A DNA stretch of 64,000 nt from Candidatus Latescibacterota bacterium. Its GTDB lineage: Bacteria; Latescibacterota; UBA2968; GCA-2709665. Positions 24,557 through 28,147 of the stretch are shown here, piece by piece. The stretch's first letter is position 1. Every line of letters begins with the position of its first letter. Location: assembly GCA_963662665.2 (NCBI GenBank), contig CAXXJS010000021.1, positions 64,001 to 128,000 of the forward strand. Reading direction: 5' to 3'. The translations under genes were made by a program, and so were the position numbers. A model generated the notes under the pieces. It had not been told where the DNA came from. It searched no databases and saw nothing but the letters and a program-made list of their open reading frames with translations.

Positions 24557-24764
24557 GGGTAAATTGCCCGTGTTGCGATTCCCTTCTCTCGCGGCGTACG
24601 CCTATCGGGCCTTGTGGTGTTGAAGGCCCTTTCGGACATTAGACGCCGCGGAAATCGGATCGGTTTCTGAAAAACCGTATTCGCGCAATCGTTTCTGTGG
24701 TTCGTTCTTGCGCCATCCATCCCGTCCGAAAGATAGATTCTACACAACATCGCAGCAAGAAAAG

Positions 24765-24794
24765 AAAAAACGCGCTGAAATCAGCGCGTTTTTT
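24765..24794. terminator. Intrinsic terminator ending the redox operon (symmetric A/T tails)
   Basis: AAAAAACGCGCTGA-AA-TCAGCGCGTTTTTT, 22 nt downstream of the 24817 stop on the minus strand. Confidence 0.8.
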
Positions 24795-24816
24795 CGTTCG
24801 AATACACCGCATTTAT

Positions 24817-25803
24817 TCAGGGTACGCTTTTACCGAAGTTCCTGGCGAATTCCAGAAAGTCCGGAAAGTCGACCAGGCCGCTCCCGTCCAGGTCGAAGGC
24901 GGGATTGTCGGTGTTGAAAGCCTGGGCGAAGGCGATGAAGTCGCTGAACCCGATTTCGCCGTTATTGTCAAAGTCGGCCCGGGGATTGACGGAGACAACA
25001 ATGGCCGTTCCCGAAATTGCGACCGTGACGCTGCCGTTTTCCGGGTCGTCGCTGGAAATGGTAATGGTGCCGGAGAATGGGCCGCCCTCCGCGGGCGTGA
25101 AGGTGATGTCGACATTCGCACTGTCGCCCGGTGCGACCATAAGCTCCGTCAGGCTGAACGTGACGCCCTCGAGGTCGGACGCCAGATCTGTGATGCTGAG
25201 GTCGTCTCCGCCTGTATTTTTCACGACGAGGGTAACGGTCCTGGTTTCGCCGGCCGGAACGTCATCCCCGAAGTCGAGCGATGGAGTGGGGAGGCTGATT
25301 GCAGGCGGCGCGACGGTCAGCAATTCCCGGATACTCGTCGCCGCGGCGCCGAGACCCGAAGCGCCGCGCCCGATGTGACGGATGATCCCTTCCCGGTCCG
25401 CGACCAGCAACGTGTGGGTCCCGTGAGAACCCCTGATATTGCCTGCCTGCAGCAGGAGGGGAAACGTGATCGTGGATACTGACTGAAAACCCCTGAGCTG
25501 AGCCGGACTGCCATTGTAGATGTCAAGTCCCAGGACTGCAAAGCCGTCATCATCCTGGAACGCCTTCCAGATCTGCTGTTCTATGGACGGACCCGCCGCC
25601 CGGCAGGTGGGTCAGTTATGGCCCAGGTAATATAGAGCCAGAACACTGCCCTCGTAATTCGCAGAGCCATAGGTTTTCCCGTCCAGCCCAGTAAGTGAGA
25701 ACGTCGGTACCGCGTCACCGACACTCTGTGCATTCGCGGGTCCGAGGGGGTAAAACGCCAAGGCCAGTAGGAATACGACGCATGCAACGATTCGACCCAT
25801 CAC
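24817..25803 (-). CDS. Putative secreted selenoprotein: AhpC/TSA-redoxin domain with UxxC, Ig-like (ASH/choice-of-anchor-D-like) domain and dockerin/EF-hand-like tail
   Basis: ORFs 25612..25803 and 24817..25410 share one frame, separated only by TGA 25612-25614. Readthrough gives ..VGDAVPTFSLTGLDG..LYYLGHN-U-PTC..FAVLGLDI..ITFPLL..LLVADREGIIR, a thioredoxin fold; 328 aa in total; AAGGAGG SD. Confidence 0.82.
25585..25611 (-). promoter_or_regulatory. Candidate bacterial SECIS element
   Basis: After UGA: CCCACCUGCC-GGGCGG-CGGGU-CCGUCC. The stem starts 11 nt downstream and the G-rich apical loop begins after 16 nt. An alternative hairpin ACCUGCC-GGGC-GGCGGGU is also possible. Confidence 0.5.
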
Positions 25804-25834
25804 AGTCCTCCTTTGAGAAAATGTGTCGTCTGCG

Positions 25835-27418
25835 TCAGAAATAGGTTTTCAGACGCATCTCAAGGCCATTGAACGGCAACACCAGATAGCATGTCCCCGA
25901 TGTACACGCGGCGCCGCCTCGTCTGCGGCCGGCGAATACGAAGGCTTCGTATCGATCGAGAAATGCGACGTTGAGATTGACCGACAGCCAGGAACGTGTC
26001 CCGGTCTCCACCCGGTCCGGTGTGGCGCCGTCGTCCACTTCAAACGGATCGTTGGTACGATCCAGTATGAGGGCGCAGCCCACGCCCGAGGGATGCTGGA
26101 AGGAAAACTGGGTAAAGACGTCCAAGAACCCCGGCTCGGTTCGAGGCTGCCTGGCCGCGCGCCGGACCTGAAAATCCAGGCCCGCGACAGATCCGCAGGG
26201 CGTCGTGGATTCGATTCCCGCGCCGGCGATTCTGTGCTTCCGAATCCCCTTCAGTTCGTTTTTTCCCCAATCGACGAACAGGTTGGTGGAAATCGCGTGG
26301 TCCCCGCCATCAGACGGAAGGTCGACCTCCACGCTGAAATACCGCTCGTTGAAGGTCGTTGTGAAGCCGGGCGCGAGTTCGTTCTCACCCTTGCTTACAT
26401 TTGCCGTCAGCGTGCCCAGACCGAATATAGAATAGGTGGCTTCCGCCTGATAGCCCTTTTCCGTATCGGCAATCAGGGCATGGGTGGCCCGGTTGAGCAG
26501 GACGGCCGAGTGTTCGCGGACAAGGGATGGTGGATCGTTGAAACTGAAGGCGAATTTCTCGTAATCCTTGTATTCCAGGCTCAAGCCCAGGTTGGAAATT
26601 CCGGCGTTGGCCGAAATATAGAGAGCGCTGCCGTCCACGTGCACGTCTTTCAGCCCTGCGTATTCGGCGTAGACGGTTGCATAAGCTTCCGGAAGGCCGG
26701 ATGCTTCGATTGCGGGCGTGACGTCGAATTCCAGAAAACCCGACCATGTTCGGGTGGAGTCAAACCTGGAGGCGTGATGGTTGACGGCGGTGACACCGGT
26801 CTTCACTTGCTTGTGAGGCCGCAGCGAGACCTCGCCTCCGAGAATCCAGTCGTCACGTCGCGGTACATCACGAAGCGGATTACCCACCCGCACCGCAGGC
26901 GGAATATCACTAAATACGGGTCGCCCGATCAGGGCCTTTGCCTCGGCCCGAGACCCCGCCCAGGTGGCAATGCCACCCTCCAGGTCCCGGGAAGGCGAAT
27001 AACGCCGTCGGTATTGCCCGCTCTCCAGAATAACTCCGGGCAGATCGAAGGCCCTGATCGTGATGCCACGACCCAGGATGGCGTAGTAGTTGCCCGCAAC
27101 CAGCTCGACGGATCCCTGCGTCCAGCGCGCGTGTTTCTGGGAGATATGCACGATCTGGTATTCAACCTGTGACAGCGGCGAGCCCGGAGCCGTGCTGCGC
27201 CATGCATTGAAGATTTCCGCCCGGAATCCGGCCTGCAGACCGTGCCGTGTGTAATCGAGGTCGAACTGCTCATAGAGTGACGAAACCGCCAGCGAGTCCG
27301 AGCCCGGTACGCGTCCCCGCTGGATTTCGGTCAGGCTGGATGCGGTCACCTGAGCCACGGCCGGTTTCGAGGTCGGCAGCAGTAGGAGCATTGTCAGGCT
27401 ATTGATCAGCGCTCGCAT
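25835..27418 (-). CDS. Outer-membrane beta-barrel protein, DUF6029-like
   Basis: Signal peptide, AGNYYAILGRGITIRA, EYKDYEKF..NDPPSL, C-terminal GRRRGGAACTSGTCYLVLPFNG..KTYF; alternating beta-strand pattern and terminal F. Confidence 0.75.
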   Translation of the reverse strand: MRALINSLTMLLLLPTSKPAVAQVTASSLTEIQRGRVPGSDSLAVSSLYEQFDLDYTRHGLQAGFRAEIFNAWRSTAPGSPLSQVEYQIVHISQKHARWTQGSVELVAGNYYAILGRGITIRAFDLPGVILESGQYRRRYSPSRDLEGGIATWAGSRAEAKALIGRPVFSDIPPAVRVGNPLRDVPRRDDWILGGEVSLRPHKQVKTGVTAVNHHASRFDSTRTWSGFLEFDVTPAIEASGLPEAYATVYAEYAGLKDVHVDGSALYISANAGISNLGLSLEYKDYEKFAFSFNDPPSLVREHSAVLLNRATHALIADTEKGYQAEATYSIFGLGTLTANVSKGENELAPGFTTTFNERYFSVEVDLPSDGGDHAISTNLFVDWGKNELKGIRKHRIAGAGIESTTPCGSVAGLDFQVRRAARQPRTEPGFLDVFTQFSFQHPSGVGCALILDRTNDPFEVDDGATPDRVETGTRSWLSVNLNVAFLDRYEAFVFAGRRRGGAACTSGTCYLVLPFNGLEMRLKTYF

Positions 27419-27938
27419 CGGCCTTCGCCCCTTCGTCGGCGCCAGCATCCGGAAAAAGCGCCTCAACGGCCGTCAGCAACACTTCGGCGTTTTTCGAATT
27501 GTATCCGACCTGCCTCAGCGCAATCTCACCGTCCGGGGTGATCAGAAGCGTCGTCGGCAGGACGTTTACCTGCATTCGCCGCATCACCGCGCTGTCGGAG
27601 TCGAGGGCGACGGGGAAATTGACCCGTCGCGCCCTGAGAAAGGGTTTCACCCGGTTCTGCCCACGCGGACCGTCCACGTTGACGCCAAGAACCGTGAGTC
27701 CGGATTTGCCGTATTTCTCGTGAATCTTCTGGAGCTTGGGCATTGCCTTGACGCAAGGTTTGCAGTAGGTCGCCCAGAAATCCAGAAGCACCGGCCCGTT
27801 TTTCAGCAGGGTCTTCAGGTTGACCCGTTCGCCCTGAAGGTTCCGGAGGTTGAAGTCTGGGGCTGAGGCGGCGTTCACAGTTGCGACGCCCAGGGTAATC
27901 GAGGCTGCAAAAGCCAGCGATTGAAATAGCGATTTCAT
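27399..27938 (-). CDS. TlpA/ResA-family thiol:disulfide oxidoreductase, exported
   Basis: Signal peptide, APDFNL, LDFWATYCKPC, LPTTLLI; start set at MKSLF (27938); overlaps the barrel gene. Confidence 0.9.
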   Translation of the reverse strand: MKSLFQSLAFAASITLGVATVNAASAPDFNLRNLQGERVNLKTLLKNGPVLLDFWATYCKPCVKAMPKLQKIHEKYGKSGLTVLGVNVDGPRGQNRVKPFLRARRVNFPVALDSDSAVMRRMQVNVLPTTLLITPDGEIALRQVGYNSKNAEVLLTAVEALFPDAGADEGAKADASADQ

Positions 27939-28046
27939 CGTCGCAATCCTTCCCGTTTTCCGCAGTGGTTTGAAGGTCTTGCAATTTATCACCGGGAGCA
28001 GAAAATAGTTGACGTCTATTGCGCCTGCTACGGCGGAGAGGAACTT

Positions 28047-28147
28047 GCCCAAACGGGGGCGCTGAGCTTGTCGAAGCGCCCCCGTTCGGGCGCGTTATTT
28101 CCTTTGCAGACCCTTCGACAAGCTCAGCGAACGGCTCAGGGTGCCGG
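28047..28147. repeat. REP-like palindromic element (CTGAGCTTGTCGAAG family)
   Basis: CGCTGAGCTTGTCGAAG (28060-28076) and its exact reverse complement (28113-28129), plus a GC hairpin 28047-28091. Confidence 0.7.

Follow-up and report, generated by a model that had tools for sequence, protein, structure and literature searches.

A reading frame interrupted by TGA

Two minus-strand open reading frames (ORFs) that share one frame raise the question of whether they represent two genes, one broken gene or a single gene that is translated through an internal stop codon. They lie in a stretch of 64,000 nucleotides (contig CAXXJS010000021.1, positions 64,001 to 128,000, of a Candidatus Latescibacterota bacterium), which is called the window in the following and to which all coordinates refer unless another contig is named. 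The first ORF (25612..25803) starts with GTG, encodes 63 amino acids (aa) and ends with TGA, and the second (24817..25410) starts with TTG and encodes 197 aa, both exactly as described in an earlier note on this DNA, which had interpreted the pair as one exported selenoprotein of 328 aa. The analysis leaves little doubt that the locus is a genuine gene decoded with selenocysteine (Sec) that was missed in annotation, and the segment from 25800 to 24817 of the minus strand very probably constitutes a single gene of 327 codons for an exported selenoprotein with Sec at residue 63. The tests by which this reading could have been refuted, which concerned the homologues, the Sec machinery of the genome, independent contigs and selection downstream of the TGA, all turned out in its favour.

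From 25803 to the terminal TGA (24819-24817), the frame contains no stop other than the TGA at 25614-25612, and it indeed continues without interruption into the 197-aa ORF. At the internal TGA the read-through product has the sequence ...LGHN-U-PTC-RAAGPSIEQQIW..., and two Pfam redoxin models extend across this position: AhpC-TSA (PF00578; 38.8 bits, cut-off 26) at residues 28-119 and Redoxin (PF08534; 27.1 bits, cut-off 26.6) at residues 28-146. The proposed U-P-T-C motif of a secreted redoxin is thus present as H-N-U-P-T-C. The proposal of a single gene was upheld and the length of its product was corrected by one residue, since the conserved start codon is the ATG at 25800, located 6 nucleotides (nt) past the sequence AGGAGG (25812-25807), and not the GTG at 25803; in the alignment of homologues, the codon preceding this ATG encodes Ala or Ser in the orthologues. 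With this start, the protein has 327 aa and the TGA corresponds to Sec63. The gene comprises the following features, listed in the direction of transcription:

25807..25812, minus strand: Shine-Dalgarno sequence AGGAGG, 6 nt before the ATG (direct sequence reading)
25798..25800, minus strand: start codon ATG (orthologues do not retain the GTG at 25803 as a start)
25729..25800, minus strand: predicted signal peptide, residues 1-24 (MGR, a hydrophobic core, A-N-A and then Q; by inspection, the pattern recurring in 22 of 22 aligned family members)
25366..25722, minus strand: redoxin domain (AhpC-TSA / TlpA-like thioredoxin fold), residues 27-145 (PF00578, PF08534, and the family profile compared with solved ResA and TlpA-like structures)
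25612..25614, minus strand: UGA read as Sec63, the first residue of U-P-T-C (conservation, alignment to Cys, independent contigs)
25603..25605, minus strand: TGC, Cys66, the predicted resolving Cys of UxxC (invariant in family alignment A2)
25585..25601, minus strand: core hairpin of the putative selenocysteine insertion sequence (SECIS), with two registers (folding, consensus, synonymous constraint)
25006..25314, minus strand: immunoglobulin (Ig)-like domain of the 'choice-of-anchor D' / DUF1573 / HYDIN type, residues 163-265 (in 22 of 22 family members)
24832..24978, minus strand: dockerin-like tail with the calcium-loop repeats DFDNNGEIGFSDF and DLDGSGLVDFPDF, residues 275-323 (EF-hand_1 at 26.5 bits; match of the family profile to dockerin)
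24817..24819, minus strand: true stop codon TGA (a terminator follows downstream)
24764..24795, minus strand: intrinsic terminator, a 14-base-pair (bp) stem followed by a T run (terminator scan)

Selenocysteine and cysteine in the homologues

The column of the internal TGA was read by eye at 61 homologous sites only. TGA occupies the Sec63 column at 59 of the 61 sites and a Cys codon at the other two, in line with the expectation that homologues would carry either Cys or TGA there. The sites comprise 38 homologues from 30 loci, the window's own gene included (TGA in 36, the Cys codon TGT in two), and further loci from other families of the class, at which TGA was found in 3 of 3 and 20 of 20 cases. 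Each of the two Cys forms is encoded in tandem with a Sec form, and the TGA is retained in relatives down to approximately 30% identity. All 14 other genomes of the genus contain a near-full-length match with exactly one TGA. Of the 168 genomes of the phylum that were searched, 106 gave a match at E <= 1e-10; among the 150 matches listed (18 further matches lie beyond these), 142 had exactly one TGA and six had no stop, the remaining two containing a TAA and a TGA plus a TAG, respectively.

An exhaustive search of a library of 1.84 billion representative proteins yielded 2986 relatives at E <= 0.001 (225 at E <= 1e-10), which necessarily are uninterrupted forms that gene callers could read. 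Among the best 150 of these 2986 relatives, the aligned column falls in CxxC in 147 and in AxxC in three. In a tree of 44 rows, the Latescibacterota rows formed a clade with a support of 100/100 that included the two Cys forms on long branches. A FastTree calculation with 83 rows (21 of the 38 rows of families f1 and f2, the deduplicated rows of f3 and f4, and the first 40 motif-bearing Cys representatives of at most 300 aa) likewise grouped the Latescibacterota forms together with the two Cys paralogues within the Sec group. This branching pattern is compatible with a single origin of Sec and few reversions to Cys, the direction of change being proven by neither tree.

The copy number of the gene varies within the genus. 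The window's genome has a single copy with tilS directly after it, and a tblastn search with the redoxin domain recovered no second copy in this genome at E <= 1e-3. In four genomes of the same genus (G002, G003, G010 and G008, at loci L027, L028, L029 and L030), a second Sec paralogue with the motif U-D-L-C or U-N-L-C and approximately 60% identity in the redoxin domain directly follows the orthologue.

Sequence accuracy, selection and gene models

An in-frame TGA could result from a nonsense mutation or from an assembly or sequencing error, in which case the locus would be a pseudogene; that gene callers stop at this codon agrees with such a history. Against it stand the retention of the TGA at nearly all sites read, including those of distant relatives, and the agreement of independent sequence data: no difference was seen in the contigs that cover 25612-25614, which come from four runs of three studies, although two of these four have the same sequence throughout the stretch and could be the source of the assembly. 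Moreover, the decay downstream of the TGA that would be expected of a broken gene was not seen in the relatives. Among 10 orthologues from the same genus (45 pairs), the median ratio of nonsynonymous to synonymous substitution rates (dN/dS) was 0.208 upstream of the TGA; downstream it was 0.202 for the remainder of the redoxin domain and 0.201 for the Ig-like domain with the tail, and thus approximately 0.20 on both sides of the codon. A mutation or error as the source of the TGA hence appears exceedingly unlikely.

Alternatively, the locus could consist of two separate genes, one for a secreted peptide of 63 aa and one for a 'choice-of-anchor D' protein of 197-241 aa that starts at an internal TTG, GTG or ATG. 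Public collections do hold just such pieces, with lengths of 197, 211, 220 and 240-241 aa. Among 5.8 billion protein clusters, 14 entries matched residues 1-160, and every one of them was a C-terminal piece of 197-241 aa, some being named 'choice-of-anchor D domain-containing protein', which agrees with the suspicion that standard annotation splits this gene. As the records hold only C-terminal pieces, the redox function is invisible in them and the names of the pieces derive from the Ig domain. However, a division into separate genes would run straight through the active site of the thioredoxin fold, and the stretch of 67 codons from the TGA to the TTG at 25410 is conserved at the protein level and lies within the Pfam match. 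The starts chosen by the gene callers differ, so that there is no conserved internal start, and the minus strand is free of terminator-like sites between the TGA and the true stop. Two independent genes at this locus are accordingly very improbable, and a single conserved frame that spans the TGA is what the homologues display.

Selenocysteine machinery

The genome that contains the window encodes all four components that had been proposed as a check on the presence of Sec, each above its cut-off. The gene of the Sec-specific tRNA (tRNA-Sec) scored 73.6 bits (gathering score 47) and was classified by ARAGORN as SeC with the anticodon tca, and selA, selB and selD scored 560.3, 371.7 and 355.6 bits, respectively, all above the curated cut-offs. 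The genes selA, selB and tRNA-Sec are arranged head to tail in one minus-strand cluster (G000:C16:126253-129770; L001, L009, L015). The selD gene is located away from this cluster (G000:C40:300099-301019; L022) and contains one in-frame TGA (L022:1528) within the motif C-G-U-A, followed 17 nt past this TGA by a hairpin of 7 bp with a GGUC loop (-12 kcal/mol, z -1.94). By its sequence, selD of this genome is itself a predicted selenoprotein gene.

The hairpin downstream of the UGA

In bacteria, the SECIS element is modelled as a hairpin with a stem of at least 4 bp, a loop of 3-9 nt with a G in the first two loop positions, a spacing of 16-37 nt from the UGA and an energy of at most -7.5 kcal/mol (bSECIS model, as given in the Fig. 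2 legend of PMC13188914). Downstream of the UGA at 25614-25612, a short hairpin can form in two registers. Register 1 (25601-25585) has a stem of 6 bp (GGGCGG/CCGUCC) and the loop CGGGU 16 nt past the UGA, and the segment 25601-25580 folds into this register at -9.5 kcal/mol. Register 2 has 4 bp and the loop GGUC (25593-25590) 18 nt past the UGA. Both registers agree with the loop, stem and spacing values of that legend, and the register of 6 bp also lies below its energy limit of -7.5 kcal/mol.

Comparison of the Sec forms indicates that this hairpin is conserved. RNAalifold applied to 27 distinct Sec forms gave a 4-bp stem with the GGUC loop at +22..+25. Gly70 is encoded by GGT in 34 of 37 sequences and Pro71 by CCG in 34 of 37, while GGT is used at six other conserved Gly columns in 2/33, 3/37, 2/38, 13/38, 7/38 and 3/38 sequences and CCG at the other conserved Pro column in 7/38. 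This codon bias relative to other columns implies that the nucleotides GGGUCC are constrained beyond the needs of the protein. The GGUC loop is absent from both Cys forms. Other subfamilies encode different amino acids in this region and have other stems at an equal distance, namely CUCUCG/CGAGAG with the loop CGUGC, CGCGG/CCGCG with the loop AGG or GGG, and a long stem with the loop GUC. A hairpin of this kind at 14-22 nt with at most -4 kcal/mol was found for 49 of 52 distinct Sec sites and for 279 of 3120 dinucleotide shuffles, and one at 16-37 nt with at most -5 kcal/mol for 32 of the 52 sites and 460 of 3120 shuffles; the 52 sites are related and thus do not represent independent trials.

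Several observations weigh against the assignment of this hairpin as a SECIS element. The published spacing of 16-37 nt was passed by just 32 of the 52 sites, and in the largest other subfamily the distance is 15 nt. The hairpin is short, and compared with shuffled sequences its stability is modest: the z-score is -1.55 for the core of 22 nt and -0.78 for the stretch of 66 nt. The consensus stem shows little covariation, a double change being seen in one of four pairs, and the covariation score over 7 pairs (0.228; shuffle mean 0.160) was reached by 4 of 500 shuffles, for sequences that are related to one another. In an Rfam scan of 25400-25800 at E <= 10, no SECIS family was recovered and the only matches were three chance-level ones to snoRNA or lncRNA families.

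The GC-rich hairpin with a G-rich loop that the earlier note had pointed out after the TGA does exist. It is the minimum-energy fold of the region, with 7 bp and the loop GGGC at 25608-25591, but it was rejected as the SECIS element: at z -0.78, 39 of 200 shuffles fold as well, it lies only 10 nt from the UGA, and uncompensated substitutions occur in its 5' arm in orthologues. The conserved element, which overlaps with this hairpin, is located a few bases further 3' (25601-25585). Two scans for additional selenoprotein genes were also discarded. A genome-wide scan for a TGA with open frames on both sides and a hairpin with a GGTC loop returned 20 candidates, of which only the present gene and selD appeared gene-like by inspection, so that the pattern of TGA and GGTC-loop hairpin alone is not specific. 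A scan based on codon usage returned 208 candidates with the two known genes outside the top 70 and was uninformative.

An open frame alone is silent on the residue inserted at the UGA, which might be read as Trp, Cys, Gly or Arg by near-cognate suppression or under a changed genetic code; low-level insertion of Cys or Trp also occurs at Sec codons when selenium is scarce. Yet the 32 complete family genes terminate with TGA (22 genes), TAG (six) or TAA (four). The codon consequently still functions as a stop in these organisms, and it occurs exactly once inside each gene. The genome possesses a complete Sec system with a selD gene that contains an in-frame TGA and the same type of loop, the position is that of the catalytic Cys in homologues, and the SECIS-type hairpin is under synonymous constraint in the Sec forms and lost in the Cys forms. 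Insertion of an ordinary amino acid thus has only a slight probability, and decoding as Sec is favoured.

By this preferred reading, the UGA at 25614-25612 would be decoded by tRNA-Sec and SelB, and SelB would be recruited by the short hairpin that begins 10-14 nt past the UGA and exposes a G-rich loop (G-G-U) 16-18 nt downstream. When the UGA occupies the A site, the ribosome would enclose the 5' arm of the more stable hairpin, so that the conserved hairpin could form.

The kind of redoxin

The redoxin domain is common to the entire family, PF00578 being matched in 22 of 22 members. The family profile matches the solved structures 2ls5, 3kcm, ResA and DipZ, with E values from 1.1e-15 to 1e-8 for the ResA/TlpA-like proteins, and the first Cys of WCxxC in solved TlpA-like proteins aligns to the TGA. 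At all 59 Sec sites read the motif is UxxC in place of the peroxiredoxin motif TxxU.

Some features speak against a function like that of TlpA or ResA. The motif is H-N-U-P-T-C and not WCxxC, the Trp before the motif being absent in the alignments as inspected. Inspection of the alignments also showed no Pro at the aligned cis-Pro site, which in relatives lies in a P-T/S loop before the (V/I)-D-R-x-G strand, and the ResA model scored only 28.1 bits (cut-off 170). On these sequence features the protein is not classified as a typical TlpA/ResA, and its redoxin domain is assigned to the 'Prx-like thiol:disulfide oxidoreductase' selenoproteins (PF00578, UxxC), a kind that is already known. According to the parts of PMC13188914, PMC1088965 and PMC5029168 used here, Prx-like UxxC selenoproteins have been known since the first surveys of bacterial selenoproteomes, and the part of PMC1088965 concerned gives 22 Sec and 4 Cys forms for the Sargasso Sea set.

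The mature protein would then be a Prx-like/TlpA-like oxidoreductase with a thioredoxin fold. As expected from the fold family, Sec63 would act as the attacking residue in thiol-disulfide exchange, or possibly in the reduction of a peroxide, and would form a selenenylsulfide with Cys66.

The C-terminal modules and the location of the protein

The fusion of the redoxin to an Ig-like domain and an EF-hand tail, which had been noted before, is present. The Ig-like domain matches PF22544 (47.5 bits), DUF1573 and the NCBIfam model choice_anch_D (49 bits, cut-off 45), and some family members contain two or more Ig domains. Part of it (residues 180-266 of P0001) also weakly matches the NCBIfam model 'OS_HP2 family (seleno)protein' with 25.1 bits (54.6 bits for the Cys relative P0051; cut-off 100), a match that probably reflects the shared Ig fold only. 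The last 55 residues consist of two repeats of the pattern D-x-D/N-x-D/N-G-x-(I/V)-x-F-x-D-F, which is kept in 22 of 22 family members; the tail of the window's protein matches EF-hand_1 with 26.5 bits. Dockerin_1 was matched at E <= 0.01 in 8 of 22 family members, and the family profile matches the solved dockerin 2y3n_B with an E value of 1.2e-8. The tail furthermore resembles 69 other places in the genome, where the corresponding tails are 36-58% identical to it and many pass Dockerin_1. Approximately 70 places in the genome carry dockerin-like tails, 24 of them at E <= 0.001 with Pfam Dockerin_1 and all of these above the cut-off.

Four cohesin domains scored above the Pfam cut-off, in the proteins encoded at C17:13328-18121, C17:7192-11868, C36:58852-61734 and C20:38894-39721. 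Of these cohesin proteins, the ones scanned at C17:13328 and C20 have a sorting domain of the type IX secretion system (T9SS) at their end, and the genome encodes SprA and a PorU-like protein. The cohesin protein on C36 combines WD40 repeats and the cohesin with a dockerin-like tail of its own. Taken together, these predicted proteins suggest a cohesin-dockerin surface system in this Latescibacterota genome. Within the same class, the Sec-redoxins of family f3 (269-283 aa) carry the sorting domain themselves, as exemplified by L113 with 40.4 bits for TIGR04183 (cut-off 23). The same model was above the cut-off in 5 of 5 scanned Cys relatives of approximately 260 aa and in the two-domain protein P0047; these Cys relatives share the architecture of the Sec forms of f3.

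A place of action at or beyond the outer membrane is suggested chiefly by the pairing of one redoxin head with two different surface-targeting tails. With its Ig-like spacer and its dockerin-like, calcium-binding tail, the likely destination of the exported redoxin would be the cell envelope or surface. Two points weigh against the surface. The tail of the window's protein remains below the thresholds (24.8 bits for dockerin_GC with a cut-off of 29; Pfam Dockerin_1 unmatched), and the protein has an ordinary signal peptide only, which leaves the route across the outer membrane unexplained; the type A sorting domain TIGR04183 was absent from it in the NCBIfam scan. The same features would fit a genuine selenoprotein that resides in the periplasm like TlpA or DsbE and uses the Ig-like domain and EF-hand tail for calcium or protein interaction unrelated to cohesins or the surface, and the gene for the TlpA-like neighbour belongs to the periplasmic type. 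This periplasmic alternative deserves serious consideration, being only somewhat less than an even bet. Against it speak the homology of the tail to some 70 tails of the genome, the match of the family profile to dockerin and the sorting domains on the cohesin proteins of the genome, on another Sec family and on the Cys relatives. Display on the surface is given an even chance, and docking on one of the genome's cohesins seems possible with a somewhat lower probability.

Genomic neighbourhood and distribution

Two genes precede the selenoprotein gene on the same strand:

25835..27466, minus strand: DUF6029 protein, a probable outer-membrane beta-barrel (PF19494, 50.1 bits), the upstream neighbour, ending 32 nt before the selenoprotein start
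27399..28052, minus strand: TlpA/ResA-like thioredoxin-fold protein with the Cys motif C-K-P-C (AhpC-TSA, 88 bits), the next gene upstream

The top NCBIfam match of the TlpA-like protein was ResA with 103.7 bits, below the cut-off of 170. Taken at its longest ORF, which starts with the TTG at 27466, the DUF6029 gene shares 68 nt (27399-27466) with the end of the TlpA-like gene; the true start of the DUF6029 gene is probably located further downstream. A link of DUF6029 to Wzi-like outer-membrane barrels by profile comparison is reported in the part of PMC9603273 used here. The DUF6029 gene is adjacent to the selenoprotein gene in 19 of 30 loci and in 5 of 6 wider loci, and DUF6029, the TlpA-like protein and the selenoprotein occur together in 5 of the 6 wider loci, including three f3 loci with a different gene order. 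This conserved neighbourhood makes the upstream Cys-type TlpA-like protein and the DUF6029 barrel probable partners of the selenoprotein.

The nearest public records are metagenome-assembled genomes (MAGs) titled Candidatus Latescibacterota and a few titled Gemmatimonadota. In the records titled 'Gemmatimonadota bacterium' (L058, L060, L062), the gene has 83-86% identity in the redoxin domain; records titled Candidatus Latescibacterota also contain it, and the phylum labels of these MAGs disagree. Outside the phylum, the same scan recovered just ordinary Cys TlpA-like proteins with at most 33% identity or unrelated Sec peroxiredoxins. A different Sec peroxiredoxin-like gene with an in-frame TGA in the motif (G/P)-G-U-T-(K/R)-(E/Q) was observed at seven loci (L069, L071, L072, L073, L075, L095, L099) in records titled Acidobacteria, Pyrinomonadaceae, Terriglobia or Actinomycetota.

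Significance of the selenoprotein clade

A conserved enzyme is thus cut in two in the examined records of this lineage, and the use of Sec appears widespread in the Candidatus Latescibacterota, where most of the genomes searched contain a match and nearly all of the matches listed have a single TGA. Apparently new are the clade itself, the near-fixation of Sec across a candidate phylum and the surface-anchoring modules. The literature search, whose scope did not extend to the supplementary tables of selenoproteome surveys, found no report of Sec in this phylum and none of a selenoprotein linked to dockerins or to type IX secretion, although those tables may list the family. A review from 2026 does not mention the terms secreted, signal peptide or periplasm, and uses 'extracellular' once, in the title of a reference. 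The Latescibacterota clade and its surface-anchoring modules hence seem to be undescribed.

Since the redoxin head is found with either of two surface-targeting tails, bacteria may be able to present selenoenzymes at the cell surface. A more far-reaching hypothesis, which is rather more doubtful than probable, is that the phylum has fixed Sec in redoxins that are displayed extracellularly, some as type IX cargo and others docked by dockerins on type IX cohesin scaffolds. If correct, these would be the first selenoproteins linked to dockerins or the T9SS, and their selenium-based chemistry at the cell surface, with thiols and disulfides or with peroxides, would be one that Cys cannot take over, as the 59 Sec compared with 2 Cys forms read would indicate. 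The Cys-type TlpA-like protein and the DUF6029 outer-membrane barrel would in that case constitute a route for electrons or for export. The family also provides a clean natural set for SECIS prediction, with 52 distinct Sec sites and several stem sequences at one fixed distance.

Comparison with known systems

Four known systems resemble parts of this gene and its product. With the E. coli fdhF-type SECIS and the bSECIS model, to the extent covered by the source cited above for the latter, the hairpin shares its location in the coding region and a small apical loop with a G followed by G or U 16-18 nt past the UGA; it differs by an upper stem of just 4-6 bp in this genus, by a stem sequence that depends on the subfamily and by the lack of an Rfam match. 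The GGUC loop presumably resembles the loop of fdhF.

Among proteins, TlpA/ResA/DsbE (ResA 1st9 and 4nmu; thioredoxin-family 2ls5, 3kcm and 3hdc) provide the best matches to solved structures, with the active-site Cys at the position of the UGA, an N-terminal export signal and an equal domain size. Unlike them, the present protein has UxxC instead of WCxxC, lacks the preceding Trp and the cis-Pro, and carries additional C-terminal modules. The closest uninterrupted relatives are Cys-type redoxins of approximately 255-270 aa with a type IX sorting domain, which share the motif G-x-x-C-P-x-C-x-x-x-(G/A)-P but contain Cys in place of Sec (in 147 of the best 150); no curated family name was found for them.

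The Prx-like UxxC selenoproteins, compared here by description only and within the limits of the parts used of PMC13188914, PMC1088965 and PMC5029168, show the closest agreement in kind: an AhpC/TSA-type thioredoxin fold, Sec as the first residue of UxxC rather than in TxxU, a SECIS element just 3' of the UGA and, there as here, Sec forms that are more common than Cys forms. Those parts of the three sources contain no mention of fusions to Ig-like and dockerin modules or to a type IX sorting domain in this family. The present clade, in contrast, is limited to Candidatus Latescibacterota records in the scan of public records, is always predicted to be exported and carries either Ig-like plus dockerin-like modules or the type IX sorting domain as a fusion.

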